A stretch of DNA of 64,000 nucleotides, from contig JAICXQ010000001.1 in the NCBI GenBank assembly GCA_025980325.1, forward strand, positions 12,232 through 76,231. Reading direction: 5' to 3'. Below are positions 1 to 28,489 of this stretch, piece by piece (position 1 is the first letter of the stretch; the number at the start of each line of letters is the position of its first letter). The translations under genes were made by a program, and so were the position numbers. The DNA is from Frankiales bacterium. GTDB taxonomy: Bacteria > Actinomycetota > Actinomycetes > JAFAQI01. Under the pieces are notes generated by a model. That model searched no databases. It was not told where the DNA came from and was given only the letters and a program-made list of their open reading frames with translations.

Positions 1-653
1 TATTTCCTACGAGCGCGCATTACACCGCGCTCGGCCACCTGCACCGCTGCCAGGACATTGATGGGTCATGCCCGATCTCGTATTCGGGCTCGCCCCTTGC
101 TGTCGACTTCGGCGAGGAGGACAACGAGTCCGTCGCGCTGGTGGTAAGCGCTACTCCGGATACCCGGGCCGCCACCCGTCGCATTCCCGTCATCGGCGGC
201 CGAACGCTGCTAACACTGCGTGGCACCCTCGACGAGGTCATCGCTGCCGGTGAACAGTCCGGCGATGCGTGGCTGCGTGTTGTGCTTGCCGAACCCGCCC
301 GGGCAGGACTTGGCGACCTGGTTCGGGAGAAGTTACCGAACGCGCTCGAGGTCCAGCTCGATGAGGAGCACAAGGTGCGACCCGGTCGAGCCCGGTCCGA
401 CCGGCCCAACCGGGCCGATCGGACACCGCAGGAGCTTTTCGCTGACTATCTCACCGAGTGCAACATCGACGATGCGCGGCTGCCGAAGTTATTCGCCCAG
501 CTGCTCGACGAAGTCACCGCGGCGCCCGACGCACCGGCAGAAGCGATCGTGCCCGTACAGGTGCCGGCGGCGGAGAAATCTGAGGCGCCGAAGCCACGAC
601 GGCGGCGCAAAGCCGACGTCGAATCCCAACCGGTACCGGCTGAGGAGAACTGA
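1..653 (+). CDS. sbcD: Exonuclease SbcD (Mre11-like), C-terminal part; the gene starts upstream of the window
   Basis: Frame 3 is open from the window edge to 653. The conserved phosphoesterase motif YTALGHLH is present (SbcD/Mre11 motif 'YVALGHIH'). The TGA stop overlaps the ATG of the next gene (ATGA at 651-655). Confidence 0.7.
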   Translation, partial: FPTSAHYTALGHLHRCQDIDGSCPISYSGSPLAVDFGEEDNESVALVVSATPDTRAATRRIPVIGGRTLLTLRGTLDEVIAAGEQSGDAWLRVVLAEPARAGLGDLVREKLPNALEVQLDEEHKVRPGRARSDRPNRADRTPQELFADYLTECNIDDARLPKLFAQLLDEVTAAPDAPAEAIVPVQVPAAEKSEAPKPRRRRKADVESQPVPAEEN

Positions 654-3091
654 TGCGGCCGCTTCGCCTGATGCTCGAGGGATTCGGTAGCTACCGAGAG
701 CCGACCGATATCGACTTTAACGATGTGAACTTCTTCGCCCTCGTGGGTCCGACGGGGTCCGGGAAGAGCACCGTAATCGATGGATTGTGCTTCGCCCTGT
801 ACGGCACCGTGCCCCGTTGGGGCAAGGAGAACGTCGTGAAATACGCGCTCGCCCCCTCGGCGAATTCGTGCCGAGTTTGCCTCGTGTTCGAAGTCGGTGG
901 TGCGCGCTACGCCGCAGCGCGGTTGCTCACTCGCGACGGCAAAGGCGTTGTGCATACGAAGGAAGCCCGGCTAGATCGCATTGACACGGCCGTGCCGGCC
1001 GCCGGTGATTTGACGGCCGTACTTGAAGCCAGCGTCGAACAATTGGCGGAGGGCGACCAGGTGACTTCTGCCGTTCGGACTCTGCTGGGTTTGAGCTATG
1101 AGCACTTCACGCAGTGCGTGCTCCTGCCGCAAGGGAAGTTTGCTGAGTTCCTACAGGCCAGTCCCGGTGACCGTCAGAACCTGCTCGTTCAGCTGCTCGC
1201 GTTCGGGGTTTACGAGCAGATCGGCCAGCTTGCCCGGCAACGCGCCCAGCTCGCCGAGAACAACCGCAAGCTTCTCGCGAATCAACGCGATGAACTTGCC
1301 GATGCGACCGCCGAAGCCGAAGATCTCGTCCGGGCGCGGGTCGACGAGATCACCGAACTGGCGGGAACGGTTGAGACGCAGCTGGCGGGTCTTGACGCCG
1401 CTCGCGTAAAGGCGCTAGACGCCGCGACCTCGGCGGGCGCCAACCGCACAGCAAGCACGCAACTTGGCGGCGTTCGCATTCCGAAAGGCGTTTCTGACCT
1501 GGCTGTCCGTATAAAGGGCGCCGACGAACAGTTGGTAGCTACACGAGCTCGGCGGGACACGGCGGAAACTGTTGAGGAGGAAGCTCGACTGGCTCGGGTC
1601 GAGCTGGGGGACGTCGAGCGATACCAGCGATGGCAAGCGGCGTACGCCGGGCGCGCCGAGGCGGAGCAGACGCTGGGAGTCCAGCAGGAGACGGTCGAGC
1701 ATCTCCGTGGCGCTGAAGACCGGCTTCGGGAGAACGTCACTGCAGCCGAGGCAGCAGTCATCGACACGGAAACCGCGTTAGCTGCCGCTCAGACCGCACA
1801 CGCAGCTGCCGCAGTCGCGGCAACGCTGAACGTCGGGGACGACTGCCCCGTGTGCGAGCAGAAGGTGATCACTCTTCCGCATCGCGAACCTCCCACCGAT
1901 CTGAAGATGGCAGCGGCGGCCGTGACTGCGGAGAAGGCCGAGCTGAAGAAGGCCAATACTGCAGCGCAGCACGCCGCTGTGAAGGTGGCGGCAGCTCAGA
2001 CCGCGGTCGACGTGACAAGTGCTGCTCTTGCCGCACATCTTGCAGCTCTAGATGGCGCGCCGTCGAGAGCGGATATAGACGTGGCGTTGGCCGCAATCGC
2101 GGCAGCCGATGCGGCGTTGTTGGCGGCTGGTGAGGACGCCCGCCGCGCTCGCTCGGCCGTGTCCGCAGCTGAGACCGCGCGCTCGAAGCTCGATCGCGCC
2201 GAGCAAGACTCTCGTGTCGAGCTCAACGCCGCCCGGGATGCTCTCGCTGCTCTCAGACCGCCGGCGCTTGCCGGCACCAATCTGGCCAATGACTGGGACG
2301 TCCTGCTCACATGGGCGGCTGAGGAACGCAGCCGCCGCGAAGCGGCGCAGCCTGAGCTCGATGGAATCGCGACCGCGGCAGGGAGGGAGGTCGCCGGGAT
2401 CGAAGACGTCGTCATCGACCTACTCGCCGAGCATGGCATCAACGACGTTGCGGACGTCGCTGCAGCTCCTGTTGCGTTGGCGACGTTACGAGCGCGTGCC
2501 GAAGCCGACCTCGCGAGCGTCAAGGCGAGCCGGGCGCGGGCGGCGCAGTTGGACCGCCGCATCACCGCGGCTGCGGACGAAGCCACAGTTGCGCGCATGG
2601 TGGGCGATCTGCTCAAGGCCTCCCAGTTCGAGCGGTGGCTGTGCGGTGAGGCGCTCGACTCACTTGTTACCGAAGCGTCGGCCACGCTGATGGAATTGTC
2701 CGGCGGACAGTACGAGCTCGACCGCACCGACCGCAACGAGTTCGTCGTCATCGACTACAACGATGCGGGCACGCAGCGTCCAGTCCACACGCTCTCGGGC
2801 GGCGAAACTTTCCAGGCGTCGCTCGCGCTTGCCCTCGCGTTGTCCCGGCAGGTTGTTGGACTCTCGGCTGGGATGAGAGACCTCGATTCGATGTTCCTCG
2901 ACGAGGGGTTCGGGACCCTCGACGAAACCACACTCGACACCGTAGCCAGCACCCTCGAGCGCCTGGCTGCGGACAAGGACAGAATGGTTGGCGTCATCAC
3001 ACATGTGCCCGCGCTCGCTGAACGCGTACCGGTGCAGTTCGTGGTCAGTCGCGACGGAACTTCCTCGCACGTGCGCAGGGTCCAGGTGTGA
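653..3091 (+). CDS. sbcC: SbcC/Rad50-like SMC-type ATPase (812 aa)
   Basis: N-terminal Walker A GPTGSGKST; central Ala/Glu/Arg-rich coiled coil with a CPVC zinc-hook motif (about nt 1845); C-terminal ABC signature LSGGETFQASLALALA and Walker B MFLDEGFGTLD. Translationally coupled to both neighbours. Confidence 0.85.
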   Translation: MRPLRLMLEGFGSYREPTDIDFNDVNFFALVGPTGSGKSTVIDGLCFALYGTVPRWGKENVVKYALAPSANSCRVCLVFEVGGARYAAARLLTRDGKGVVHTKEARLDRIDTAVPAAGDLTAVLEASVEQLAEGDQVTSAVRTLLGLSYEHFTQCVLLPQGKFAEFLQASPGDRQNLLVQLLAFGVYEQIGQLARQRAQLAENNRKLLANQRDELADATAEAEDLVRARVDEITELAGTVETQLAGLDAARVKALDAATSAGANRTASTQLGGVRIPKGVSDLAVRIKGADEQLVATRARRDTAETVEEEARLARVELGDVERYQRWQAAYAGRAEAEQTLGVQQETVEHLRGAEDRLRENVTAAEAAVIDTETALAAAQTAHAAAAVAATLNVGDDCPVCEQKVITLPHREPPTDLKMAAAAVTAEKAELKKANTAAQHAAVKVAAAQTAVDVTSAALAAHLAALDGAPSRADIDVALAAIAAADAALLAAGEDARRARSAVSAAETARSKLDRAEQDSRVELNAARDALAALRPPALAGTNLANDWDVLLTWAAEERSRREAAQPELDGIATAAGREVAGIEDVVIDLLAEHGINDVADVAAAPVALATLRARAEADLASVKASRARAAQLDRRITAAADEATVARMVGDLLKASQFERWLCGEALDSLVTEASATLMELSGGQYELDRTDRNEFVVIDYNDAGTQRPVHTLSGGETFQASLALALALSRQVVGLSAGMRDLDSMFLDEGFGTLDETTLDTVASTLERLAADKDRMVGVITHVPALAERVPVQFVVSRDGTSSHVRRVQV

Positions 3092-4056
3092 CGGCCCAGG
3101 CGGCGCCGCCTAGCGGATTCTCCGTAGACCCGTGGGACCCGGGGTACGGCCTGGCGTTCAGCAGTGACCTCGATGGCGGTGCGTTGGAGGAATCGAGCGC
3201 GCAGCTCAACCTCGCGGTGGAAATGCCGGCAGACGCGTGGGCTCCCGTCGATCCTGACCCGACCGTCGCGGTGCCGGACACGATCCTGTTCCTCGACGGC
3301 GTGCGCCGCATCGACGCTCGGGTCTGGGTCTACGGGAGTGACCCGCAGCCGGCGCCCGGCATCGCAGCGTCTTTCGCGGCGGGACTCGTCTGCTGCGACG
3401 GCGCGGCTCGCATTGTGGACGTTAGGGTCGGCCGCGGCCTCTTCACCGCCGCATCCGTGGCCGACATCGTTACCCGACAGGCGACTTATCCCGTTCGCGC
3501 CGCAACCGGAGGCAGTCTTGACGAGTTGTCGCTAGCCCTACAGCAGCGGCTTGCCGAGGCAGAAGTTGGGCTCGCGCTCGACTTTCGCGCTACCCACGCC
3601 ATCGGTGACGACCTGCTCGTCGTAGACGGTCCGTTACGCGGACGGACGCACCTGCCTCGCACAGTCGGCTACGTCAAGACTCACCACACTGCCTACCTAC
3701 CTGCGACACAAGCGGCAGTAGTAGCCGAGCTCGCGCCCGGTCAGCGGACCCCAGTGTTTTCAATGGGCACATCCTGGATCCGAAATTCTTGGTATCTGAG
3801 ACTGCCCGGCGCATCGGGTGCCCCGTGGTCCGGGGTCGTCCGCGTCGAGTGTTCTGCCGACCTCTCGCCAGTCGAGGCGGTACGGCTCGCTGCGGTCACC
3901 GCCACTGTCCTGCCGCCGCTAGCCAGCGCACCGCACAAGGACCCACGCGCGCCGCAGAACCTCGTGCCGATTGGCGGACTCGAGCGTGAGTTGCGGCATC
4001 GGCTGGGTGACACGCGACTGCTTTATCGAGCGTTGCGAGCCGCGGCAGCAGGCTAG
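3088..4056 (+). CDS. NurA-like (RNase H-fold) nuclease-domain protein, putative (322 aa)
   Basis: The GTG start overlaps the sbcC stop (GTGA at 3088-3091). Contains the motifs ILFLDGVRRID and LLVVDGPLRG, reminiscent of the paired DG(S)/DGsL acidic motifs of NurA 5'-3' nucleases. The ORF is protein-like, but the function is inferred from motifs only. Confidence 0.45.
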   Translation: MTAQAAPPSGFSVDPWDPGYGLAFSSDLDGGALEESSAQLNLAVEMPADAWAPVDPDPTVAVPDTILFLDGVRRIDARVWVYGSDPQPAPGIAASFAAGLVCCDGAARIVDVRVGRGLFTAASVADIVTRQATYPVRAATGGSLDELSLALQQRLAEAEVGLALDFRATHAIGDDLLVVDGPLRGRTHLPRTVGYVKTHHTAYLPATQAAVVAELAPGQRTPVFSMGTSWIRNSWYLRLPGASGAPWSGVVRVECSADLSPVEAVRLAAVTATVLPPLASAPHKDPRAPQNLVPIGGLERELRHRLGDTRLLYRALRAAAAG

Positions 4057-4117
4057 TGCCCCCGCGGAGCTCGGCACGCGGCGTGACAATCCCCGCCGGC
4101 GCGCGAGGCAAGGAATT

Positions 4118-7100
4118 GTGGACCGCACTGCGCCTTCGGCTCCGCTTCCGCCCCAGATGGGGGACGTCGCGAGCAAATTGTCAGTGGTGCGGCCGATACT
4201 CGCGTGCATGTTGACCGGCAATCAGCCACGGCCGCGGTGGACTCGGCTGGATGCCGCGCTGGCGCCGTTCGACGCGCTCTCGGTCGAGGTCTTGGCGCGG
4301 GCCGCGCTCGACTCGCCGTCGGCATCGCACTGGGCTGCCGCAACGGGCCTCGTGTGGGCGCGAGCGCTGGCACGGTCACCGCGCGGCATAGTCGTCGCCT
4401 CCGCTGAGGATCTGCCGAAGCTGGTCGGCGCGGGGGTAGCTGCATGGCCGGAAGCGCGCAACATGTCTGACTGGTGGCCTTCGGATCCCCGACTGGTCGT
4501 GAGTGCGCGAGTGCGGAACGGTCGGGTCAGGCTTCACCCCGGTCGGGTTGTTGAACCCCTGCGATTAGTACGTCGGTTGGAAAGAATCGCCTTTGCAACC
4601 GATGACGCGGTCTACGCGCGTCACGGGTTTCGGACCTCAGACCTGGTAGAGGTGGGGCTGCGCCTCGCGGATCTGCAAGTGACGGGGCTTGCGCCCGCGT
4701 GGTCACAAACGGCGCTACCCGAGCCGCCCTTGTTACGTATCCCGCGAGCGTCACCCTTCGACGTAGCGGAGCAGGTGCGCGCAATCCCGCCTTCGGTCAC
4801 AAGTGAGGAGATCACGGCTGCCGCGCGGTTGCGGGAGCGCGACCTCGTCGCCGATGCCTCGGCACTATGCACGGACCCGACGGCCGCCGGGGCTGCGTGT
4901 GAGTGGGCGACAACGGCGGTCCGTCAAGCGCATCAACCCGGCTGTTTAGCTGTCACCACCGATGCTGGCTTGGTGCCGGTTCCGGCGTCGCTAGTGCTGG
5001 AAGCGCTTGGAATAGCAACGGGCCGCCTGGCTATCGAGGCGGCGGGCGAGCCGTGGGTGCGTGAAAGATGGGCATACGCCAGCACGGCGGACCTCTGGGA
5101 AGTGCTCGGCTTGCCGTTCGTGGATGACGAGACTCCCATCCCAGTCGGCGGGATGCTGCGGATCGCGGAACGGCATCTCGCGAGCATCGACGTGGTCGCC
5201 GAACTTGCACCCGCCTCTGTACAGCCGGCTGCGGAGAACGCCGTTCATCGAGCGGCGTCGCGTGCAACCACGGAAGTGGCCGACGCAACAGGTGTTGCGG
5301 CGGACATGTCCGCCGACATGCTTCGGCTTGTGCTGATCGACGCGGCCGGTCGACTAGAACGGCTGAGTGGGGGAGCGGTCGTCGCAGTCACAGCCGACGA
5401 ATTCACACGAGTCTTGTCGGAGGCTGCAGACGGCCCAAACGGTCAAGATGAAGCGTGGGACTTCCTCCTTGATCTGCAGCGCGTTCCGCGAACCGTCGAG
5501 CTACATCCACCGGATCTCGTAGATGCGTGGCGGCATTGGCGTGAACATGGGTGGCTAGTCCCTCCCGAGCTAGACGTAGACGCCGTACCTGATGCCGCGG
5601 TCATGTTCGCCTGGCTCGCGCACGACCCGTCGTGGCCCGCGGCTGCGCAATGGGATGCGACCGAGCGAATCCTTGATGCAGCAAGACTGCCGCCGAAGGT
5701 CGCCTTCTGGGCACGGGATCTCGACGATCGTGGCGTTGTGACATTGTGGGCTCCGCCCGCGATGACAGGCGGCCGGCCGACTTGTTACGCGCTGCATCCG
5801 GACGGGCTCGTCATCGGTGCGACTGGTGATCTGCCCGGTGCTGGAATCCCCGACGGTGCCGGAGCTCTTCCGATCGTCGTCGCCACAGCTCTGCGCGATG
5901 CGCTGTTCGCCCGTCCTGCAGCGGTCGCAGCACTGAATCTTGACCCTTTGACACCGAAGCGAGTCCTGGTGGGCGTCGACCTCGACGAAGGTGACGGCAT
6001 CGCAGTCGCGACCGCGGACGGGCTGCCCCCACTGATCCTTCTCGGGCCGATGCTGCTCGCTGCAACGGCAGCCGATCCCATGGCGATGCACCATACGCTC
6101 GGTGCCGCGCTCTCAACTGCCCTGCGCCTCGGCTGCGGAGACGTCGATATGGACGCATTTTCTGCAGCGTGGAACGCCGGCCCCGTTGCGCTGGTAGCGG
6201 GAGTGCGCGCGGGCCCCGTCGACCGGTCTCCGCGGCGAGAGTTGCCACGCACGCGCGCCGCGCGGATGCGGGCGCACCAGGCGCATGCAGCCGCAGTGCG
6301 TGCCGCCGGTGGGGACGTGCCACCGGGTGAGCTGACGGGCGACGAGGCCGCCGAAATATGTCAGCGTCTGCTGATCCCTGCTGCAGACCGAGCACTACGG
6401 GACGCAATCGCTAGGTTCGATCGCGATCTGCTCCTCCGCGCAGCGGCGACATGGGCCGATGAGGCACACGCTCACCGTGCGCAGTTGCGAGACAGGCTCG
6501 ATCTAGCGCTTGCTGCGCCTTGGCGTGACGAGGTGCTAGCCGACCCGAGCGACTACGAGGACGACCCGGACCAAACAAGGCCGTTGCATGTGCTTATTGA
6601 AACCGCAATCGCGGCGAATCCGGCTCCCGAATCCGCGGGTATCGCTCCAGATCGCATTGACCTGGCTCGACTTGCCGAACAGGCGCGACTTGTCGCGTGG
6701 GTCGGCGCAGCATCAGACGGGTACCGCCGTGGTCTCAACACGCTAACTGTCACGGTGGGACCAGGTGCCCTCACCGGCGTGTCCATGCCGGCATCGGACC
6801 CAAGCATCGAGGCAACCGTTGATATGGCTGCATACGTTGCCGCTTCTAATGTCGATGCGCTCGCCGCTGCGGCCGATGAAGCTCGCCTGCAGGATCCGGA
6901 CGAGGTTGAGCGACTCCTCGCGGAGGCGGACGGAACTGAACGGCCTTTCGAGCGGTTCACCGACTTGCCGGACCTGCCTGGGTCGCTACGAAGTCTTGAC
7001 CAAACGATGCGAGTCACTCTCGGCGCTGGGTTCGGCGCCATCTCGGCAGTTCTTCGGACCTGTATCGATATGGCGCCGCCACCGATCGGCGTGCTATCAG

Positions 7101-7876
7101 AGCCCATTCCCGTCGCAACACTTCGCGACGACATCGCGGGGTGGTCAAGACTGCCGCCGGAGGAAATCACGGCCGCGATTCGACTACTCACTGTCGACAG
7201 CGACCTCGCTCGTGGCGATCGCACCGGTGCGTGGGAGGTCGAACGGCGCGACGCGAGGCTCAATGCACGGCCCCTCATTGCTGTCACCGGCGGGCTGCTC
7301 GTCCTGCCGCACCTGTGCACGACCGCTCGCGACATCTTCCTCGGCCGACTTGCTGACGGCCGACTTCCCTGGCCCGTCCGTGACGAACGTCTGCGGCTCG
7401 CGGTCGACGCGTTTCGCCGCCATGTCACCGCGCAGCTCGAGCGCACGGTCGGCGAGAAACTCTCTGAGCTCGGCTTGCCGCATGTGATGAACGTCAAGGA
7501 GAACCGAGCCGCTGCTCTTGGGATCCCCAATCTGCCCGGCGAGATCGACGCACTCGCCGTCGAGGCCGCCTCGGAAACGCTTTGGGTGATCGAGGTCAAG
7601 CATGCCCGTCGTGCCGTGAGCGCGAGCGAGATCCGCGAACGGGTGAGGAAATTCATCGAGCCAAACGGTTACATAGACGTACTGCTCCGCAAGACAGCTG
7701 TCATCGCTCCGCATGCCTCAGCGGCTGCCGCACTGGCCGGCGCCATCGAAGAGCGACCTTGGCGGGTCGTTCCGCTCATGGTCACCGCAGCCGTCGAGCC
7801 CGCTGCGTTCGCGTCGTCGCGGCGCGTGCAATTCGCGACACCGAGAACATTGGCGGTCGCGCTGCAAGCGACCTGA
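4118..7876 (+). CDS. Large Ala-rich hypothetical protein (about 1250 aa) with a C-terminal PD-(D/E)xK nuclease-like motif
   Basis: The long ORF (3971-7876) overlaps the previous gene. The likely start is GTG 4118 (aagga RBS) or ATG 4157. No Walker A/P-loop was found. The C-terminus carries GEIDALAVEAASETLWVIEVKH (D..E.K, restriction-endonuclease-like core). Same strand, 62 nt after the NurA-like gene. Confidence 0.55.
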   Translation: MDRTAPSAPLPPQMGDVASKLSVVRPILACMLTGNQPRPRWTRLDAALAPFDALSVEVLARAALDSPSASHWAAATGLVWARALARSPRGIVVASAEDLPKLVGAGVAAWPEARNMSDWWPSDPRLVVSARVRNGRVRLHPGRVVEPLRLVRRLERIAFATDDAVYARHGFRTSDLVEVGLRLADLQVTGLAPAWSQTALPEPPLLRIPRASPFDVAEQVRAIPPSVTSEEITAAARLRERDLVADASALCTDPTAAGAACEWATTAVRQAHQPGCLAVTTDAGLVPVPASLVLEALGIATGRLAIEAAGEPWVRERWAYASTADLWEVLGLPFVDDETPIPVGGMLRIAERHLASIDVVAELAPASVQPAAENAVHRAASRATTEVADATGVAADMSADMLRLVLIDAAGRLERLSGGAVVAVTADEFTRVLSEAADGPNGQDEAWDFLLDLQRVPRTVELHPPDLVDAWRHWREHGWLVPPELDVDAVPDAAVMFAWLAHDPSWPAAAQWDATERILDAARLPPKVAFWARDLDDRGVVTLWAPPAMTGGRPTCYALHPDGLVIGATGDLPGAGIPDGAGALPIVVATALRDALFARPAAVAALNLDPLTPKRVLVGVDLDEGDGIAVATADGLPPLILLGPMLLAATAADPMAMHHTLGAALSTALRLGCGDVDMDAFSAAWNAGPVALVAGVRAGPVDRSPRRELPRTRAARMRAHQAHAAAVRAAGGDVPPGELTGDEAAEICQRLLIPAADRALRDAIARFDRDLLLRAAATWADEAHAHRAQLRDRLDLALAAPWRDEVLADPSDYEDDPDQTRPLHVLIETAIAANPAPESAGIAPDRIDLARLAEQARLVAWVGAASDGYRRGLNTLTVTVGPGALTGVSMPASDPSIEATVDMAAYVAASNVDALAAAADEARLQDPDEVERLLAEADGTERPFERFTDLPDLPGSLRSLDQTMRVTLGAGFGAISAVLRTCIDMAPPPIGVLSEPIPVATLRDDIAGWSRLPPEEITAAIRLLTVDSDLARGDRTGAWEVERRDARLNARPLIAVTGGLLVLPHLCTTARDIFLGRLADGRLPWPVRDERLRLAVDAFRRHVTAQLERTVGEKLSELGLPHVMNVKENRAAALGIPNLPGEIDALAVEAASETLWVIEVKHARRAVSASEIRERVRKFIEPNGYIDVLLRKTAVIAPHASAAAALAGAIEERPWRVVPLMVTAAVEPAAFASSRRVQFATPRTLAVALQAT

Positions 7877-8177
7877 CAGGCGAAGGAGCACTTGGAATGA
7901 CGGCGCGCCGCTAGATGCATCCAGAGAAGTCCTCGGCGGAATCAGCAGTCGCCTTCGCCGTTGACGATTCAACGTCGCGCCTAGTCGAATGCTGCCTAGC
8001 CCAACGTTCGCGGGACGGGGAGCGTTAGCTGAGTCCGGCCGCAGAGGACCCATGAATGTGCCCCGCGGTGGGGGCCTGGCTGGCTGGCGAGACAATCCGC
8101 CGGTTGGTGCAGTCTCTCGGGCAGAACCCAGGCGAACCCGCTCGACCTCCGGCGCGGGCGGCGATTGGATCGCGTCT

Positions 8178-9058
8178 ATGGACATGACGTTCGCTGCGTA
8201 TCTCGCTGAGGCTCCGACTCACGAAGGTGGTGAAGTGGTCCCTGACCAAGTGCACTGGTTGCGGTATGTAGAGGCCGTGCTCGAGGTCATCGACGAATAC
8301 GTCAGGGACACCGGAGTGTCAGAGCACCACGCCCGACTGCAGTTTGCGGAATTCTTCGTCGGTGAGTTTCTCGGCGACGCGTGGATCCAGAGGCATTTCC
8401 GCTCATATGCCGGCTCGACCGCCAAGGACCACACGCTCTTCAAGTATCGCCTATGGCACTTGGCCGCCTGCTCTTCACGCTCCAGAGCTACCCATGGTTT
8501 GAGCAACTCCTCGACAATCTATCCAATCGCAGTCTCCCGGGGGCTCAGTTCGAGGCTGAGGTGGTGCACCTGCTCATGCACTCGCCCATTCGGGCGAATC
8601 TTCGTGCACCGACGGGCACTAAGGGTCAAGATTATGACATCGACTTGGGCGCCGAACCGTTGCTCATCGCGGTTGAAGTCAAGGCGAAGCAGGACTCGAC
8701 CCCCTTCTCTGTCTCGACGGTGCAGTCGACGTTGAGGACGGCGCGCAAGCAGCTACCTCCGCATGGTCGAGGGCTCGTGTTTCTGCGTGTGCCCTCCAGC
8801 TGGCTTGAGGACTCCTCCTACCGAGAGGAGATTGAGCCGATCCTTACGAACTGGTTACGGAACACGAGTCGCGTTCAAGCCGTCATCTTTGTTTGGGATG
8901 AAATGACGGTGACCTCCGAGGCGAAGCATCATTATGAGCCGCGACAACGGATCGTTCGCGCGAACTCGGTCGATTCCGATGTCAGTCAGTTGCTTGACTT
9001 GCTCGATGCGGTTTGGGCGAGCAACTTTGATCTCGTGGCTCCTGCATCCGCTCTATGA
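8178..9058 (+). pseudogene. PD-(D/E)xK (restriction-endonuclease-like) protein gene interrupted by a -1 frameshift near 8445-8465 (or a sequencing error)
   Basis: Frame 0 is protein-like from MDMTFAAYLAEAPTHEGG to FKYRLWHLAA, then degenerates. Frame 2 becomes protein-like from ALGRLLFTLQSYPWFEQLL and contains QDYDIDLGAEPLLIAVEVKAK (D..E.K). Local GC is lower than the flanks. Confidence 0.4.
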
Positions 9059-9422
9059 CCGCCCTACGCCCAACCAGATCGATGTCACGGGCTTGCGGTG
9101 GTTAGCGCGCGAGGTCGAGCAGCGCTGTGCCGGGCGAACGGACCCCACGCGTCACAACGACGGCTAGGCGATCAAGCTGTGCAATCAAATCGCAGCCCCC
9201 GACTCTGTGCGGATGGATTGCCCATCGTCCGATGGCGCCAAGGAGGTGAAGTAGAGAGGCCGAGGACCCACGATGTCGGCGCGGAAGTGGCGATACCGGG
9301 GTGTTGGGCCGCGCTATTTTGCGGGGCCGCCCCTCCGGCCTCAAGGGCGCTCGCTTCGCTCGCGTCGCTGCGCGACCGCCTTCGGCGGCCCTTGACCCCG
9401 GAGCCTCTGCGGCCCCTACCGG

Positions 9423-10631
9423 TCAGGGAGTGCGGGCCGGGGCGAGCCCCTGCCCGCAGGACGCGCGGCCCGCGACGTGTAAGTCAATGGAAAGTGTCCC
9501 GGTCTGCCATGCGATCGCGCCGGGCGAGCCGTTTCTACTGTGCGACCGCCCCGGCATAAGGTTGTCGAGGACAGCCGCAGTTTCCTGCAGGTGCTCCGGA
9601 AACAGGTGGCCGTAGGTGTCCATCGTCTCGACGATGGACTTGTGGCCGAGCCGGGCCTGGATGACCTTTGGGTGGAGCCCGGCGGCGATTAGGGACGACG
9701 CGTAGGTGTGCCGCAGCGCGTGCATGCCGTACTCCTGCGGGAGGCCGGCGCGGCGTAGTGCGGGTTTCCAGACAGAGTCGTTGAACGACCCGCGGCGCCA
9801 GACTTCGCCGCGCGGGTTGGTGAACAGCAGGCCGTCCTCGCCAGTGCCGTACCGCTCGATGTGTGCGGCGAGGGCGTCGACGACGAACTTCGGCAACGGC
9901 AGCAATCGGCGCGACGACGGGGTCTTGAGCCGGTCGCTGATGACAGGAACCCCGCCGCCCATCGGTGTCTTGGCCTGCGCCTCGACCCACAGCTCGCGGC
10001 GCAGGAAGTTGACCGCTCGCAGCCGCACTCCGAGCAGCTCGCCCTGGCGCATGCCGGTGCCGACGCCGAGCGCAAGGATCGCGTAGTGGTCCGGCCGGGC
10101 CTCGAGCAGCAAGGACCCGACCTGCTCCGGCGTGAGGATCGACAGCTTCGACGGCGGGATTGCAGGCAGGTTGATCTTGAAGCACGGCGTCGTCGTGAGC
10201 AGCCGGTCATACACCGCCGAGCGCAGCATCATCGCGAGCAGCGCGTAGATGTGCCGGACCGTGCGCGGCGCGAGTCCCTTGCCGACGAGCGTGCCGACGA
10301 ACGCGTTGATGTCCGTGCGCCGCAGCGACGACATCGCGCGGCCGCCGAGGTGGGGGAGGACCTGGCACTTCAAGTAGGTGTTGTAGCCGGCGAGGGTGGA
10401 CGGCTCGACCCGCAGCGACGCGAGCCACGCCGGTGCGTACTCGGCGATGGTTATCCGCGCGTCGCCGCGGAACACGTACGTGCCGTCGATCGCGGCGACC
10501 TGCGCGCGGGCGAGCGCCTGCTCGGCGAGCTTCAGAGTGGAGAACCGCTTGCGGACCATCCGGCCCTCGACGCGGTAGGTGATCTCGTAGGAGAAGCCGC
10601 GCCCGTGGGTGATCTTGCGGGGTCGAGCCAT
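9423..10631 (-). CDS. int: Tyrosine recombinase/phage-type integrase (402 aa)
   Basis: N-terminal SAM-like domain with the catalytic domain carrying the R..HxxR..Y residues (HALRHTYAS, LGHKS, MDTYGHLF). Lies in the lower-GC islet. Confidence 0.9.
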   Translation of the reverse strand: MARPRKITHGRGFSYEITYRVEGRMVRKRFSTLKLAEQALARAQVAAIDGTYVFRGDARITIAEYAPAWLASLRVEPSTLAGYNTYLKCQVLPHLGGRAMSSLRRTDINAFVGTLVGKGLAPRTVRHIYALLAMMLRSAVYDRLLTTTPCFKINLPAIPPSKLSILTPEQVGSLLLEARPDHYAILALGVGTGMRQGELLGVRLRAVNFLRRELWVEAQAKTPMGGGVPVISDRLKTPSSRRLLPLPKFVVDALAAHIERYGTGEDGLLFTNPRGEVWRRGSFNDSVWKPALRRAGLPQEYGMHALRHTYASSLIAAGLHPKVIQARLGHKSIVETMDTYGHLFPEHLQETAAVLDNLMPGRSHSRNGSPGAIAWQTGTLSIDLHVAGRASCGQGLAPARTP

Positions 10632-11241: not shown

Positions 11242-14200
11242 ATGGTCTTCAGGGGGGATGTTCTCGTGATCCGGTCGAGGAAACCGCATTCACGTACAGT
11301 CGCGAATCGCGCCGTCGCACAGGCGATCGGCAAGACTCTTTTGGCCTTCACCGTCGGCGTGTCGGCGACGGTCGTGTCGGCACCGCTCGCCGCCGCGTCC
11401 ATCCCGACCACGGTCCCGCAACTGCAGCCGGTCGACGGCGAATCGCTGGCGGACACGAATAGCGGCGCGGATGCTATCGCTGCATCCGCCACGTCGTCCG
11501 GGTTGACCGAACGGCCGGACACGTGGATGCAGACGAGTCGCACCTTCACCGCCGCAAATGGAATTAACACGACGGTGATCGGTCTCACTCCGCTCAACTA
11601 CCAGGACGCGGGCGCCACGTGGCAGCCGATCGACGACGAGCTCACTGCGGACACGACGACGGGCTATGCGTGGCGTAACACCGCCGACGCCTACAGCGTC
11701 GAGTTCCCGGCGAACCTTCTGTCCGGGCCGATAAGGGTCAGCAACAACGGCGGTTGGGTCGCGTTCCAGATCGCCGGTGCGACCGGCGCAGGTGTGGTGA
11801 GCGGCAACACAATCACGTATGCGAACGCGCTGCCGGGTGTGTCACTGACTTACGCGGCGACTCCGCTCGGGTTGAAGGAGACGATGACGCTGGCGGACGC
11901 GTCGGCCTTGTCCGCGTTTACCGTCGTCGTGACCAGCAGCGACGGGCTGACGACCGCGACCCAGGTCGACGGGAGCACCGGCTTCGTCAACGCGACCGGC
12001 GATCTGATCGCGTCACTCGCGAAGCCGTGGATCACCGACGCGAACCAGGACATGAGCGGCCTCGACGACGCACTCTCGTCGTCGTTGACGCCGGACGGGA
12101 CGAACGCGTGGCTGGACGCGCTCACGGTGTCCGCGACCTGGTTGACCGCACCGAGCCGCTCGTGGCCGGTCACCATCGACCCCACGCTGAAGACCGAGCA
12201 GGACTTCTCGACCGACTGCCTGATGTTCTCCGGTCACCCGACGAGTGGTGTGTGCGCTCAGAATCCGGCCGGCGTGGGTTACCACGCCGACGATTCGCTC
12301 ATCCGCCGCGACGTCATGGAGTTCTCGGTGTCGTCGATCCCGTCCTCCGCCACGGTCACGGACTCGGAGCTCGAGCTCGACGAGGGGCTCACCGCCTATG
12401 GCCCGGTCGAGCTCCAGATCTACCGGAACGATCAGAGCTTCAGTGCGGTGAACGCCACCTGGGACGACGCCGATGCGCATACGGGAACGGCCTGGATCTC
12501 GACCGGGCGTGGCGGCGACCCGGTCGGCAGCGCTTTGATATCGACTCCGTTCGGGTGCGACCCCACCGGCCCGAGTTGCGCCGGCGTGAAGACGTTCAAC
12601 ATCGCCGGCGCGACCCAGAACTGGGTGAACGGGACGTGGGCGAATACCGGCATCCTCTTGCGCGAACAGGTCGAGACCAATGACGGCGTCGTGCAGTTCA
12701 ACGGCAGCAATTCCCCGACCGGCCCGCCGAACATCGTGGTGACGTGGGATCGCAACCCTGACCAGCCGACCCTCGTATCGCCCGCCTCGGGTGCGACCGG
12801 CCTGTCGCCGAGCCCATCGCTGCAGGCGAACGTCACCGACCCGGATGGCGGCGACCTGTACGCGAGGTTCTTCGTCCGCACGCACGGATCGAGCACCTGG
12901 GACATTGCGAACGGCGTCATCATGCCGGCACCGAACGCCGACGACTCGAACGGCGTGGCCTCCGGCGCGACCGTGACGTACTCGCCGTCCCTCTCGCCCG
13001 GCGTGACCTACGACTGGACCGCACAGACGTGGGACGGGACGCTGTTCTCGACGACACCGACGGCGCAGTCGTTCACGGTCGCGCCGCTGCCGCCGCAGCC
13101 GACCGTGTCGAGCTCGACTCATCCGAGCCCCGGCACCTGGTACACCGCTCGTAACGCGACGTTGAACTGGAGCGCGGGCAGCGGGATGACGGGATACTCC
13201 TACGTTCTCGATCAGCCCGGGTCCGGATCGACCACGTGTCCGAGCACGACACCGGATACGACATCGGAAGGCACCGCGACCACTGTTTCGTACGCGAACC
13301 TCGCCGACGGCATCTACTGCTTCCATGTGCGCGCCCAGAACATCTCCGGTTGGGGGCCGGCGTCCAACACCTTCGAGATCGACATCGACGGCACGACACC
13401 GGGCGCGCCGAGCGCAGTGACCTCGACCCCGGCACCGAACAGCAACGGATGGATCACCTCCGGCAACTTCACAATGAACTGGTCCGTGCCGACGCAGACG
13501 CAGGTCTCGGGGATCGCCGGCTACTCGTACGTCCTCGACCAGCCGGCGATCGGCAACACCTGCCCGCCGACGATTCCCGACACGACATCGGAAGGCGCCG
13601 CCGCGTCCGTGAGCTACACGGGCAAGGCAGACGGTGCGTGGTGCTTCCACGTCCGCGCCGAGAGCGGCGCCGGGCTGTGGGGCCCGGCGGCGCACTACAC
13701 GGTCAGCATCGACGCAACGCCGCTCACGGCACCGCAAAACCTCACCTCGAACCCGGCGCCGAACGCGACCGGATGGCTGACGATGAACAGCCCCACCATG
13801 ACCTGGTCGGCTCCGGCCAGCACCTCGGGGGTCACCGGTTACTCGTACGGCCCGCTCGATCATCCCGCGTCCGGTTCGACCACCTGTCCGACCACGGCTC
13901 CCGATACGACATCGGAGGGCACGGCCACCAGCGTTTCGTACAGCAATCTCGCCGACGGCATCTCGTGCTTCCACGTCCGCGCAGAGAACGCGGCAGGTGT
14001 CTGGGGTGACACCGCGCACTACACGTTGCGCATCGACAGCGTCGCCCCGACATCGCCGGCGAACCTGACGACGACTCCGTCCGCGGACGGGCTGTCCCAC
14101 GCGACCCGCACCATCGCCGCATCGTGGAGCGCGGGAACCGATGCCACGTCCGGCGTGGCCGGTTACTACTACACGTTCGACAACGTCGCGACCCGTCCCG

Positions 14201-17200
14201 CCAACACGCCGTTGTCTGCGGACACGTTCACGGCGACGACGACGGCGACGCTGTCGAACTCGACGGACGGTGTGTGGTACGTCCATGTGCGCACGATCGA
14301 CGCGGCCGGCAACCTCAGCGGTTACGCCAACTACGGCCCGGTGATTCTCAACAACGTCAGTCCGATCATCAACAAGACGCTCAACACAGCGGCGGCGAAC
14401 GGCTACTACGGGCGCGGCCAGTACCTCCAATACACGGTGACGGTGACCAACCCGTCGACCCTTGCGCCGTCGACGATCACTGGCTTCAGCGACACTCTCC
14501 AGCCGGGTCAGCTCCTGATCGGCACGGACATCCTGCTCAGCCGCTCCGACGACGGAAGTACCGCGGCGCGCCACTGCCTGCGGATCACCGGATCCGAGCA
14601 GTGCACGATCAGCACCGATGGGACGACGATCACGCTGCCGAACTTCACCCTTCCGGCCGGCGTCTCGCTGCAGCTCGTCTACACCACGCTCGCGACCGGG
14701 GTGGAGAACGGCTGCATGATCACGTCGAACACCGCGACCGCAGCCGATGCCGCGGGCAGCGCGACCACGAACCCGGTTTCCGCCACCATCTGTGACACCG
14801 GTCTCGGAATCGAGCCCTGGTGGAGCTATGTCTCGACCGCGGTCGGGCCTCAGTCGACCGCGCAGGTCAACGTCGCCAACGGCAACCTCGTCGTGCAGGC
14901 GACCGACTCCACCCCGATCAACGCGCACGGTCGCCTCGGTTACGTGATCCGCCGTACGTACAACAGCCAGGACACGACCGCGCTCACGCTGCCCGGAAGC
15001 CTCGGCGCGGGCTGGCAACTCAACGTCGGCGCGACCGACGATCTCGCCGGCGCCGGCGTGACGCCGACGAGCCTGTCGGTCCCGACCGCCAACAGCGTCG
15101 CGGCACCGCTGGGGATCACACTTATCGACCGTGACGGCACCAGGCACGTCTTCACCTACCGCAGCGCGAGCGTCGCGATCACGTCGCCGGTCGACGTGAC
15201 CTCACTCGCCGGCGGATCGCCGATCCATCAACTCGTGCCGGTGAACCCGCTGCTGCGTCCGTCGAGCCTGAGCGGGTCGGCAGCCTTCGCCCACGTGTGC
15301 GTCGACGCGACCTACCAAGCACCTGCGGGCGTACACCTCGCATTGTGGCGTTACGTCGGCACCAACGGCAGCACCTGCTCCGCTGCGCTCAATGATTCGA
15401 ACGCGCGGATCCTCGGCTTCACGACGATGCGCCCGGACCGGCTGCGCTCCGAGTTCGACGCCGCCGGTCACCTGCTCGACCTCGTCGACGGTTCCGGCGT
15501 CGACCTCCGCTACGCGTACGGCACGACCGGCGAGCTCAGGTCGATCAGCGAAGCACGTGACTGCACCGGCGCGGTCGGCACCGCGACGTGTCGTGGCGTC
15601 GTCGTCACGTACTCGAGCGACCAGACGAACGCGTGCCCCATTCCGGCCGGCGCGGCGAGCAGCGAGTGCGTCATCGATCCGGCCGGCCGTCGCACGATTT
15701 ACGCGTTCGACAACGCCGTTCCGAAGCATCTGGTCGAGGTCGACAACCCGGACGACAACCCGTCCGGCACCCGGGACCGCTTCCAGTACGCCTATCAGGG
15801 TTTCGGGGCGAGCTGTGGCGCCGCCGCGGCCGGTCAGCTGTGCACCGTCGTCGAACCGCGCTTTGACCCGAAGACCGGTGCTGTGATCAGCACGACGTTC
15901 GGATACACCGCGCAGAGCCCGCTCGGCCTGCCACGCGTCACGTCCATCACCGACCGCCGCCATGTGATGACGACGCTGGCCTACACCGGCGCGCCGTCGA
16001 CCGCTACGACCGTGGACGACAACGGTGAACGGACGAGTTACCTGTCGATCGACTCCAGCGGCCGGGTCGGCGAGGTCGACCAGGGGGCCACCACCGCGAG
16101 CCCGCTGAGCATCACCCGCTACACCTGGGACACCGCAGCCAATCCCTGCACGTACGTCTCCGGCACGGTGCAAGGCACACACACGGCGTGGGCCAGGCCG
16201 GACAACAACCTGTGCCGGGTGACGAGAGCGCACATCAGCGGGGCGTCGGACGAAACCACGTCGTTCGCCTATACCCCGGAAGGGATGCTGCTCACGTCCC
16301 GGCAGGTCATGTCGTCCGGGCCGGACCTCTACCGCACCTACGCTTACGCGACGCAGTATGTCCGCAACGGAAGCGCCACGATCACCGCGACGGACTCGGT
16401 GTCCGGCAGCGGCGACGTCGCCGTCGGCAACCGGTCGAGCGCCATCGGCGACGGTGGCTCGGTGGCCGGCGACTCCTCGGTCGTCTATGCACTGACCGAC
16501 CTCGTCGCAAGCTTGTCACCGCGCGGCAACGTTGCCGGTGCGACGGTTGCCAACTTCCGCACGGATTACACGGTCGCGGACAGCACTGCTGCCGAACCCG
16601 ACGTGAACCCCGGCGGCAACGCCTGCACGGCACGCAACAGCGGCTCGGTCTGCACCGTGTCCGCGCCGTACTCCGGATCCTCCAAGAGCATCACGCAGTA
16701 CGACTACGACAGCTTCGGGCAGAAGGTCAGCGCGACAGTTCCCAAGCTCTCCTACGAAACCCCGCCGAGCGGGCAGACCTACCAGTACACCTACACCTAC
16801 TACGCCGACAGCTCGACCGACCACGAGACGCACAAGACCAGCATGGGCGGATGGCTGGAAGCCGTCACCGACCCGGCCGGCCACTACGTGTTCTTCACCT
16901 ATGACGCGGCCGGCGATCGCACCCGCACGTGGGACCGCAACGCAACCACGGCGAGCGGCGATTCGCTTTCGGCGATGGAGGCGGCGGTCGCGACCGGTTC
17001 CGGGCCGGTCGGCGCTTCGGTGACCTTGTACGCAAACCCGTTCAACTCGATGCCGTGGCGCTACCTGCTCCTCACCGAGGAACCCGTCGGCCCGCTCACG
17101 ACCTATGCGGTCGATGTCGACGGCAACGTGACGGCAATTACGACGAACGCGGGCCACACGACGACACAGACGTTCGACGAAGCGGGCAACCTGCTCACTC

Positions 17201-20200
17201 GTACGACGCCGGCGGAGCCGGGACACCCGACGACGAACACCTACGATGCGTTCGGGAACCTCGCCACGACCACGAGCCCGAACAACGTCGTCACTGCGTA
17301 CCGCTACGACGCACTCAACCGTCGGGTGACGACGTACACCGACCGGGGTAGCGCAAGCAGCGGCACGTCCAACCCGGGCGGCGGCTGCTTCGTGACCGAC
17401 ACCGGTGCGAACGCGGTCCCCGAGTACGCGGTGAACGAGGTCGTCTGCGCCGCTCGTGCGAGCTACGACGAGTTCGGCAACATGGTCTCGAGCACCGACG
17501 GCGCGAACCACACCACGACGTACACGTACGACACCGCGAACCGTCGGGTCGACACGTTGACGCCGCGGACCGACACAGTCAGCTACACCACGCGCACGCT
17601 CTACGACGCCGACGGCGACGCGATCGACACGTGCCCGCCACGCCAGTTCACCGACGGCGGGGCGTCGACGTGCTCCGACACCAGCCCCGGCGTCTACAGC
17701 ACCCATCGAAGCTTCAGTGAAGCGGACCGGTTGCTGACGACGACGACATATCGCGCGCGGCCGACCTCCGTGCACGGCGACCCGGCGAACACGCCGGCAA
17801 CGAGCACCGACACCACGACGTACACGTACGACGCCGACGGCAACCGGACCAGCGTCGCCGACCCCAACAATCATGTGACGACGGACGTGTACGACTTCCT
17901 CGACCGCAAGACCAGCGAGCTGACGCCGCGGACGAGTGGAGTCAACAAGCGCACGGTGTACACGTACGACGCGAACGGCAACGTGCTCAGCACGACCGCG
18001 TCGGGCCTCGCGCCGGTGAACGTCGGGGGCACCCCGCTCAATGTCGGCAGCCCGTACTCCGCGTCGAACCCCTATCCGCTGCCGGCCGACGTGACGACCT
18101 ACAGCTCGATCACACTGACCGGCGGCGCCTGGATCACCGTGCCGGCGAACAGCGCGCCGGCCGCGATCAGCATCACCGTCTCGTCGACCCTGTCGATCTG
18201 CAGCACCTGCGGCATCACTCTCGACGGTGACGGCTGGGCCGGCGGCACCCCGGCGGCAAGCGCCCTGACAACGGACGGATTCACGGTGAGCGGGAGTGGC
18301 AGCGGGCCCGGCGCCGGCGCGGGCGGTACCAGCGCGGCGACGGCCGGCGGTGGCGGCGGAGGCGCCGGCTACTCGGCGGCGGGGACCGACGGCTTCGGTG
18401 GCGGCAGCCCCCTCGGCGGCGCGGGTGGCAACGCCGGCTCGCCGTACGGCGACGCGACCATCGGCGGTGAGACGTCCACTCAAGCCGGCTCGGGCGGCGG
18501 CGCGGGCGGCACGATCGAGCCGTCGACGCTCGGAGGCGTGGGTGGTGCCGGCGGCGGCATCCTGCACGTGACGGCGAACCAGATCATCCTCGACGGTTCG
18601 ATAACGGCACGCGGCGCGAACGGTGCGGACGGCCAGGTCGTCCAAGGCGCGCTCGGTGCGGGTGGCGGCGGTGGCGGCTCGGGTGGCGCGATCTGGCTGA
18701 GCGCCCCGCAGATCATCACCGACTCCGGCTCGATCGGTCACGTCGACGTCAGCGGCGGTGCCGGTGGCAGCGGCACTCCGGGTGGCACTGACGGCTCGGG
18801 CGGCGCGGGTGCGCCGGGTCGGGTCCGGTTCGACACCGACGAGCTCAGCAGCAGCATCGTGACGACCGCCGGGTCGACGCAACGGACGACGTTCGGGCGG
18901 ACCACCGCGTACAGCTACGACTTCGACAACCGGCTCGTCGACACTGTGATCGGCGCGTCGTCGCCGAACGCGGCGGCCGACGGTCCGACCGGCAGCGACG
19001 GCGGGTCCAACGTGCGCACCCGACTCGTCTACGACGACGAGGGGAACGTCGTGGGCCGCTTCGACCCGCGTGCCTTTGCGGCGTCGGTGACGAGCCCGGA
19101 CGTGCGGTACGAGTCGGTTGCGGTCTACGACGCCGACCATCGGCTGACCGACGTCTACCAGCCGTACAGCGACTCGAGTGGCGCGTCCGATCCGAACGGT
19201 GCCCCGTCGCAGTGTCCGGACGCGGCCAGTCTCGGGATCAGCGCCTATCAAGGCCTGACCGGTGTGCACGTCTGTCGTCTGCACTACGGGTACGACCACG
19301 ACGGCAACCGCACACTGACGCAGCTGCCGACGTACGACAGCAGCGACACGACCCGGGTGTACACGGCTGCTTACACTCCGGACGACCTGCTCGCGTCGAC
19401 GAGTGTGCCGGACCCGTCGGTGACGAGTCATGCGGCTGCACTCCGTGCGGAGGCATACACCTATGACGGTGCCGGCCGCCGCCTGACCGACCAGGAGTTG
19501 CCGGACACCGGTGGCCCGACGACCACGACGACGTACACCGCTGACGGCTTGGTCGCCACGGTGACGCCGCCGACGGGCGGCGCGAGCCATCTGACGACGT
19601 ACGGGTACGACCCGAACGGCGCGCAGGTGAGTGTGACGATGCAACAGGACGCGTCGACCACCCGGACGAGCTTCACCGACTACAACAGCGACGGCAGCGT
19701 CTATGCGAACGTCGACCCGGCCGGAAATACGACGAGCTACACCTATGACGCGGCGGGCAACCAGATCGCGGTCTATGGCCCGTCGGCGAATGCCGGCGAT
19801 GCGACCAACCCGAACCACCTGCCGACGGTGTATTCGTACTTCGACGACAACTTGCTCGCGACGACCTCGACGCCGACGGTGTCCAGTGGTGCGACTCGCC
19901 GCCTGACGACGTACGGCTACAACCTGGGCGGCGACAAGACCAGCGTCGACGTCGACTACACCAACGCGAGCGGGACAGTGACGACCGACGGTGCTCCGCA
20001 GCGTTTCGGGTACTACCCGGACGGGCGGATTGAGTCGTCAACCGGCCGCAGCGGCGGGTCGCAGGCGTTCAGCTACGACGCGGCCGGGCACCCGTTGTCG
20101 AGCAGCGACACGGCGAACGGCGACACGGTCACGACCGCCGCGACGTATTACCTGGACAACGCCATCCGCACGGTGAGCGAGTCGGGGACTGTGGTTCCGA

Positions 20201-26751: not shown

Positions 26752-27118
26752 GATCAAAGTGGATGCCTGGGATTGGCGCCTGCAGGTCCAAACGACTACG
26801 GAGACAAGCCGCGTGACCAGGCCGACATCCCCCAGCTGTCATTTGGGGCCGGCATGACGGCGAGTGACATGAGTCTCTTTGGAGAACATTCGGCTTACCG
26901 GCGGACTCCGTCCGCGGCCTTGCTCGGATCCGCGCTCACGGAGCGTTTCCGGCGCGGCTGACCGGCCACTTTCGGGTCCCCTTCCCGATCGAACCCGGCC
27001 AGCGCTGGTCGTCGGGCGCCACGGAATCGGGCGGGAAACTTCGGTCCGGACGCTGAAGGCGCCGTCACGCAAACCCGCGAGGCTCGCCGCTGACGCCCTC
27101 AGCACGACAGGAGCAGGG

Positions 27119-28489
27119 ATGACGATCGACATCGAACACTGGCGGCAGCGGCTGGCCCTGCTCGCCGACAAGCACGGCGTCCCCGGCGCCTCGCTGGCCA
27201 TCCTCAACGACGGCGACGTCGCGGACGCGGCGTACGGCGTCCTGAACCTAAGAACCCGCACCAACACAACGACGGACTCGCTGTTCCAGATCGGCTCGAT
27301 CACCAAAGTCTGGACCGCAACGCTCGTCATGCAACTCGTCGACGACGGACTGCTCGATCTCGACGCACCGCTCGTCACGTACCTCCCGAAATTCAGAGTC
27401 GAAGATCCCGACGTCACAACAAGCGTCACCACCCGGCACCTGCTCGCGCACACCAGCGGTATCGACGGCGACCTGTTTCTCGACACCGGCCGCGGCGACG
27501 ATTGCATCGAGCGTCACGTCGACGCCTGCGCGACACTCGGCCAGAACCATCCACTCGGCGCCACGATGTCCTACTGCAACGCCGGCTACACGATGCTCGG
27601 CCGGCTCATCGAAGTCTTGCGCGGCGCTACCTGGGACGACGTGCTAAGGGAGCGGCTGCTCACGCCACTTCGCGCACGCACCGCCGGCACCCTGCCGGAA
27701 GAAGCCTTGCTGCACAGCGCCGCCGTCGGCCACATCACCCCGCCCGGCAAGGAAATCACCGTTGCTCCGCGATGGGGCATCTTCCGCTCCGCCGGCCCGG
27801 CCGGCCTCATCCACGCCACCGCCCGCGATGTGCTGACCTTCGCGCAACTGCACCTCGACGACGGTGCAACACGAGACGGCACGAGAGTGCTCTCGAAACA
27901 GAGCGCGCAACGAATGCGCGAGCCACAGGTCGCCGTGCCGGACACCTACACTCTCGGCTCGCATTGGGGCCTCGGCTGGATCCTGATCAATTGGAGCGGC
28001 CAAGACGTGTACGGCCACGACGGCAACACCATCGGCCAGAGCGCCTACTTGCGCATCGTCCCGGACAAGGGCGTCGCCGTCTGCCTGCTTACCAACGGCG
28101 GGCATGCAGCCGACCTGTTCCGCGACCTGTTCAACGAAGTGTTAGGCGAGCTCGCCGGCGTCCTACTCCCACCACGCCTCGAACCACCGGCGCAGCCACC
28201 CGACGTCGACCTCAACGCGTACGCCGGCCGCTACGCGCGGCAGAGCTTCGAGATCACGTTCGAGACCGCCGGCGACCATCTCCTCGCGCAGCCGAAGACG
28301 AGCGGCGAGCTGGCGGCAGCAATCAGCGCCGAACCACTGCCGCCGTACGAGGTCTATCCCGTGCAGGAAGACGTCTTCGTCGGCCGCAACGAGGACGGCG
28401 CGTCGTGGACGCCGTTCGTGTTCTTCACCCTCGACGGCGGCGCGCGTTACCTGCACATGGGTGCCCGCGCGACCCCAAAGGTCGGCTGA
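27119..28489 (+). CDS. Beta-lactamase-family serine hydrolase (class C beta-lactamase/D-aminopeptidase-like)
   Basis: SxxK motif SITK near the N-terminus; about 455 aa; the AGGAGCAGGG RBS precedes ATG 27119. Confidence 0.8.
   Translation: MTIDIEHWRQRLALLADKHGVPGASLAILNDGDVADAAYGVLNLRTRTNTTTDSLFQIGSITKVWTATLVMQLVDDGLLDLDAPLVTYLPKFRVEDPDVTTSVTTRHLLAHTSGIDGDLFLDTGRGDDCIERHVDACATLGQNHPLGATMSYCNAGYTMLGRLIEVLRGATWDDVLRERLLTPLRARTAGTLPEEALLHSAAVGHITPPGKEITVAPRWGIFRSAGPAGLIHATARDVLTFAQLHLDDGATRDGTRVLSKQSAQRMREPQVAVPDTYTLGSHWGLGWILINWSGQDVYGHDGNTIGQSAYLRIVPDKGVAVCLLTNGGHAADLFRDLFNEVLGELAGVLLPPRLEPPAQPPDVDLNAYAGRYARQSFEITFETAGDHLLAQPKTSGELAAAISAEPLPPYEVYPVQEDVFVGRNEDGASWTPFVFFTLDGGARYLHMGARATPKVG

Follow-up and report, generated by a model that had tools for sequence, protein, structure and literature searches.

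The stretch of DNA considered here, henceforth the window, comprises 64,000 nucleotides of contig JAICXQ010000001.1 from a Frankiales bacterium (assembly GCA_025980325.1), and it carries at positions 4118-7876 of its forward strand a large gene, 1252 codons and a stop, that we discuss as a relative of the Upx family. According to the account given in PMC13601566, it was Gao et al. (2020, Science) who first described Upx, an 'uncharacterized PD-(D/E)xK defence protein', as a defence system consisting of one gene; its structure and function were characterized in 2026 (PMC13099982, PMC13601566). An open frame runs from 3971 to 7876 (+), and its translation from GTG 4118, a codon with AAGGA ahead of it, gives a product identical to the 1252-residue protein called by NCBI on the 113-kb contig. 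Two other in-frame candidate starts are found at ATG 4157 and ATG 4208, and one relative has its gene called 22 codons longer, overlapping the stop codon of the preceding nurA gene. Since residues 1-52 (4118-4273) display a ratio of non-synonymous to synonymous substitution rates (dN/dS) of 0.83 against the orthologue of an 89%-identical record (L002), in a region missing from distant homologues, and since homologue alignments begin near residue 34, the evidence suggests that the real start may lie downstream of 4118, at ATG 4157 or ATG 4208. A preliminary description of the locus had pictured a giant alanine-rich protein of about 1250 residues, devoid of any Walker A or other ATPase motif, and this picture holds: the product contains 18.5% alanine, 11.4% leucine, 9.3% arginine and 0.7% lysine (nine lysines), none of the strings [AG]xxxxGK[ST], GxGK[ST] and GK[ST] occurs in its whole length, and a Pfam scan of the 1252 residues retrieved no domain, with no ATPase match in particular.

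The Upx protein of Salmonella (SeUpx), whose cryo-electron microscopy structure is 9WUF (PMC13099982), provides the frame in which the domains of the window protein can be laid out, all of them on the forward strand. The N-terminal domain (NTD), a putative phage-protein sensor, would cover residues ~1-510 (4118-5647); it is placed by position match to the SeUpx NTD (1-515), and its boundary is approximate. It is followed by a middle domain (MD) at residues ~511-694 (5648-6199), the counterpart of SeUpx 516-714, where hmmalign brings SeUpx 547 onto 541 and 714 onto 694. Next comes the helical portion of the C-terminal domain (CTD), at residues 695-1101 (6200-7420), matching SeUpx 715-1120. Finally, residues 1102-1252 (7421-7873) form a PD-(D/E)xK nuclease core, recognized from the alignment with SeUpx, from conservation and from the topology of a predicted model.

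The signature of this core is borne by NLPGEIDALAVEAASETLWVIEVK, residues 1138-1161 of the protein, within a longer segment, NLPGEIDALAVEAASETLWVIEVKHARR, which also starts at residue 1138 and spans window positions 7529-7612. Using hmmalign, with SeUpx residues 429-1272 taken from a Salmonella record and their numbering verified against the published D1161, we find that SeUpx E1125, D1161, E1176 and K1178 correspond to E1108 (codon 7439-7441), D1144 (7547-7549), E1159 (7592-7594) and K1161 (7598-7600), each codon having been verified on the forward strand. When 40 diverse homologues are compared, all of them have D1144 and K1161, 39 have E1142 and 38 have E1108, and an acidic residue stands at position 1159 in every case (37 glutamates and three aspartates). 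The preliminary description had proposed a C-terminal D-x(n)-ExK core resembling restriction endonucleases, to be abandoned should its acidic and lysine residues prove unconserved among homologues; with these residues present in 38 to 40 of the 40 sequences, and with the SeUpx alignment in agreement, the proposal stands, for a core of about 150 residues. In a model built with AlphaFold2 (AF2), the core adopts an alpha-beta-beta-beta-alpha-beta topology, its fourth strand coming after helices, with D1144 at the start of strand 2, E1159 and K1161 on strand 3, and E1108 in the long helix that precedes them. It is worth recalling that in SeUpx the substitutions E1176A or E1176A/K1178A abolish both defence and terminase-induced toxicity (PMC13601566).

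Kinship with Upx surfaced only when profiles and an exhaustive search were used, as single-sequence searches were insufficient. Indeed, a single-sequence phmmer comparison of the window protein with the PDB gave nothing useful, and a word-indexed search for homologues returned three to six matches only, among them one relative with 90% identity and a pair of homologues with about 26%. The family is represented by the models NCBIfam NF042954, Pfam PF28173 and PADLOC PDLC02221. Against NF042954 the window protein scores 19.1 bits (E=1.5e-4), its residues 825-878, in the helical part of the CTD, facing positions 830-881 of a profile of 1240, and the PADLOC model gives a weak, collinear match in the same region (E=0.0045). 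A profile made of four sequences, the window protein and its relatives, already matches PDB chain 9wuf_A at E=1.2e-6, and a family profile of 40 sequences does so at E=5.2e-36, its positions 511-1180 aligning with residues 549-1241 of the chain, that is, with the middle domain and the whole of the C-terminal domain. Individually, 10 of the 40 members match NF042954. One homologue, P0004, is recognized by Pfam PF28173 ('Upx-like') and by NF042954 at E=9e-42, and hhalign joins it to the window clade with a probability of 97.6%. An exhaustive search with a hidden Markov model over 1.84 billion representatives collected 1252 clusters with the threshold set at E<=1e-3, and 285 when it was lowered to E<=1e-30, almost all measuring 1150-1270 residues and alignable end to end, and a degenerate DNA pattern for GE[IV]D-x11-WV-x-E-[VA]-K-D picked out 67 metagenome loci, every one a true member of the family. 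Over 638 aligned columns the window protein is 15.7% identical to SeUpx, which is comparable to the 16% that separates SeUpx from HpUpx, both of them functional (PMC13601566).

The distribution of these genes can be sketched from a few records. A large plasmid of Streptomyces sp. NBC_01426 (7986-11762) and 12 other large Streptomyces plasmids, linear ones among them, bear Upx-like genes, ~30-38% identical to the window protein, which are monocistronic and labelled 'hypothetical protein'. A Sinorhizobium copy of Upx has been truncated by IS66, and none of the Escherichia coli genomes that were searched carries the SeUpx gene.

The predicted fold leads in the same direction. An earlier AF2 model, built from a multiple sequence alignment of 10 sequences, had a mean predicted local distance difference test score (pLDDT) of 46.6 and was left out of the fold search; with 61 sequences the pLDDT rose to 91.0 and the predicted template modelling score to 0.90, the NTD being mostly above 90. 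When this model was compared with the PDB using Foldseek, 9wuf was the sole match at E<=0.001 (E=6.4e-24, probability 1.00), with a template modelling (TM) score of 0.58 by both normalizations over 1347 alignment columns, a full-length span and 15% identity. Other PD-(D/E)xK structures (FokI, MGME1, the arenavirus endonuclease) came out at E>1. The N-terminal region has conserved features of its own within the clade: over the 40 sequences, D118 is found in 32, D123 and R125 in 37 each, D162 in 38 and D175 in 36, and the positions P141-G142 and G170-F171 are conserved as well. The arrangement D118/D123-P-R125 (D-x4-D-x-R) resembles D122/D127-x-R129, the site proposed in the SeUpx NTD, in its spacing.

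Upstream of the Upx-like gene, and as the preliminary description had surmised from its mention of sbcC- and NurA-like genes, lie the C-terminal fragment of SbcD (141-653, +), identified by homology searches, SbcC (653-3091, +; TIGR00618, E=9e-78) and a NurA homologue of 322 residues (3088-4056, +; PDB 7f6d_H, E=1e-20), sbcC and nurA overlapping by 4 nt. The 5' part of the operon falls outside the window; in close relatives HerA is encoded just upstream of the stretch that the window covers, and the HerA proteins of these relatives and of a Streptomyces plasmid match 7f6d_B (E=3.5e-75 and 1.4e-140). The segment 141-4056 is part of a HerA-SbcD(Mre11)-SbcC(Rad50)-NurA operon, separate from the Upx-like gene, and genes of such an operon are present in other records (L076, 4271-10969; L083, 2433-10002; L082, ~4500-10053). 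In relatives this operon is flanked by genes for TerB, a BrxC/BrxD-like ATPase and a DEAD helicase, and NurA homologues are also encoded on plasmids of Nostoc and Sphaerospermopsis. Perhaps the operon is a module for defence in its own right, or one carried by plasmids; nothing relevant came out of a literature search for defence systems built on SbcCD-NurA.

Downstream, the landscape changes. Synteny with L002 stops at window position 7854, at the 3' end of the Upx-like gene, and beyond it are encoded a tyrosine integrase (9423-10631, -; Pfam) and an RHS-repeat protein of 3719 residues with DUF6531 and Y_Y_Y domains (11242-22401, +; Pfam), a probable polymorphic toxin. Because of this break and of these two genes, a variable island is recognized here, with the Upx-like gene at its border. 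No tRNA gene was found anywhere in the 64 kb of the window. Directly after the Upx-like gene comes an open reading frame (ORF) of 248 codons (7989-8735, +) without a Pfam, NCBIfam or PADLOC match; its product is a singleton cluster in a collection of 15 billion proteins, and L002 has unrelated genes at this place. Further on, the segment 22000-28000 has a G+C content of 0.60-0.63, against 0.65-0.74 elsewhere, with several ORFs that have no Pfam match and a gene for a protein of the beta-lactamase family (26879-28489).

Taken together, profiles, catalytic residues and fold make it very probable, in our opinion, that the window protein is a divergent Upx of actinobacterial type, a single polypeptide without an NTPase domain in which a sensor and regulatory region is joined to a PD-(D/E)xK nuclease. 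The preliminary description had considered that such an architecture was undescribed, a view that must be given up in the light of two matches to Upx, one obtained with the family profile (E=5e-36) and the other with the predicted fold (E=6e-24). As for its trigger, its substrate and its defence phenotype, we infer them by homology with SeUpx, HpUpx and PbUpx, for which phage resistance or activation by terminase has been reported (PMC13099982, PMC13601566), the substrates reported in vitro being single-stranded replication intermediates. The protein would start as an auto-inhibited monomer, in which the N-terminal and middle regions would restrain the C-terminal nuclease until a phage protein made in the course of infection binds the N-terminal region. 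By homology this trigger would be the ATPase domain of the large terminase (PMC13601566), gp16 having also been proposed (PMC13099982). Binding would then license an Mg2+-dependent nuclease acting through E1108, D1144, E1159 and K1161, DNA would be degraded, and the infection would end in abortion or in the death of the cell. In all this the window protein most likely acts on its own, with SbcD-SbcC-NurA as a separate operon for the processing of DNA ends.

Several observations weigh against this interpretation. The equivalog cut-off of NF042954, 1900 bits, is far above the score of the window protein; as this model is an equivalog for close relatives of SeUpx, we take the window protein as a distant member of the family and not as an equivalog. 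Our local copy of Pfam yielded no match for it, a HMMER search with a profile of the N-terminal 330 residues failed to retrieve 9WUF, and a TM score of 0.58 with a root-mean-square deviation of 10.8 is not by itself proof that the N-terminal domains superpose. Within the core, the protein departs from the consensus at five non-catalytic positions (N1104T, D1149E, R1154T, D1162H and R1224A) which are conserved in 29-36 of the 40 homologues. Between nurA and the Upx-like gene neither promoter nor terminator was predicted, and co-transcription with sbcC-nurA is possible. Finally, the evidence on the window clade consists of sequences and a model, and the two studies of Upx themselves disagree on the trigger and on the NTD, seen either as a second nuclease or as a sensor (PMC13099982, PMC13601566).

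Some variants of this scheme may be mentioned. In this lineage the gene could have been captured by the transcription unit of HerA-SbcD-SbcC-NurA and have acquired a functional coupling to it, or the block of five genes could make up a composite defence island with the TerB, BrxC-like and DEAD genes, or else the distinct N-terminal domain of the clade could respond to a trigger other than terminase, all of which we regard as very unlikely. Were the coupling true, nicks or ends made by Upx could, for instance, be fed to the resection machine and phage DNA be destroyed, in the way RecBCD follows restriction.

It is also quite unlikely, in our view, that the protein is a relic of Upx, decaying or diverted to some regulatory or structural role with an inactive nuclease. 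The five core substitutions could be read in this way, together with the high synonymous divergence of the same region, for, in the comparison with L002, dS reaches 0.74 in the nuclease core (7421-7873), some four to five times the 0.15-0.18 of its other regions. This last feature suggests that a tract next to the breakpoint of synteny has recombined, and we do not think that the substitutions indicate inactivation: E1108, E1142, D1144, E1159 and K1161 are all intact, the frame of 1252 codons is uninterrupted, and the AF2 model is confident throughout. Furthermore, the gene is under purifying selection, as shown by a dN/dS of 0.26 overall against the same orthologue, with 0.37 in the NTD, the highest value of any domain, 0.27 in the MD, 0.15 in the helical part of the CTD and 0.17 in the nuclease core.

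If the (HerA-)SbcD-SbcC-NurA machine had in the Upx-like protein a fourth subunit, or an effector, dedicated to it, this would account for the local arrangement: the gene is on the same strand as nurA, after a gap of 62 nt with no predicted terminator, and the order SbcC-NurA-Upx-like is kept in all the close relatives that were recovered (L002, L075-L081). These genomes, the only ones where this order was found, share 88% or more DNA identity with the window, however, and thus represent one lineage. We therefore looked at 72 family loci apart from the near-identical L002, the upstream flank measuring 1 kb or more in 37 and 3 kb or more in 25: no homologue of SbcC, SbcD or NurA was seen in the flanks of any of them (0/72). 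Conversely, the operon exists without an Upx-like ORF, both on a Streptomyces plasmid, where HerA-SbcD-SbcC-NurA is followed by a protein with a helicase-associated domain, and in Nonomuraea, where SbcD-SbcC-NurA is found. Other members of the family keep different company, P0030, the closest independent relative (43% identity), having a GASH/DO-GTPase/GAP1 system and a pair of integrases as neighbours, P0002 sitting beside an Mrr gene and P0004 among toxin-antitoxin genes. To this it must be added that validated Upx proteins, SeUpx among them, protect E. coli alone (PMC13099982, PMC13601566). The idea of a fourth subunit, which we now hold for very unlikely, is thus largely refuted by the synteny survey, and with it goes the initial impression of a protein attached to SbcCD: co-occurrence with the sbcC/NurA-like pair was looked for and does not recur across independent lineages, so that the proximity is a local accident specific to one lineage and not a recurrent system. 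A generic nuclease of the Mrr, NERD or RecB type, fused to an unrelated large domain and sharing with Upx nothing beyond its PD-(D/E)xK core, can be set aside as very improbable too, for although pairwise BLASTP with SeUpx is significant over that core only (E=0.002) and the N-terminal profile misses 9WUF, hmmalign and profile homology extends over residues ~541-1216, through the middle and helical C-terminal domains and far past the ~150 residues of the core, Pfam finds no Mrr, NERD or RecB match, and the full-length Foldseek alignment singles out 9WUF, leaving FokI, MGME1 and the arenavirus endonuclease at E>1.

If the window protein is understood as an Upx, a large clade of actinobacterial proteins of about 1200 residues, 'hypothetical' in RefSeq and without a match in the local Pfam library, can now be assigned to this family with its catalytic residues named. 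The known range of Upx is thereby extended to about 16% identity with SeUpx, in high-GC Actinomycetota, and the clade could help to test how general the sensing of terminase is. At the same time a false lead is removed, that of a new nuclease architecture attached to SbcCD.

How the window protein stands with respect to known systems can be summarized as follows. The archaeal herA-mre11-rad50-nurA cluster has the same gene set as the neighbouring operon, with HerA present in the relatives, and none of the components of the HerA-Mre11-Rad50-NurA operon is a homologue of the Upx-like protein. The Avs proteins (Avs1-3) resemble Upx in that a single large protein couples the sensing of terminase to a nuclease effector (PMC13601566), but they rely on a STAND NTPase and on oligomerization, whereas the window protein has neither Walker A motif nor NTPase domain, and no match to Avs was found either by sequence or by Foldseek structural comparison. 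In contrast to SeUpx, the window protein is encoded in high-GC DNA, rich in alanine and arginine and poor in lysine, with ~16% identity and a score below the equivalog cut-off; its N-terminal region is not alignable in sequence with that of SeUpx, the clade having its own D118, D123-P-R125 motif, and its gene sits directly 3' of an SbcD-SbcC-NurA operon. It is nevertheless to SeUpx, from Salmonella enterica NCTC6026, that it is closest: the two proteins are of similar length (1252 and 1272 residues) and lack an NTPase domain, their middle and C-terminal domains are collinear, the D-x14-E-x-K spacing is identical and the glutamate of helix alpha1 is conserved, 9WUF is the sole significant fold match of the window model in the PDB, and members of the family are encoded by solitary genes in defence or mobile islands.

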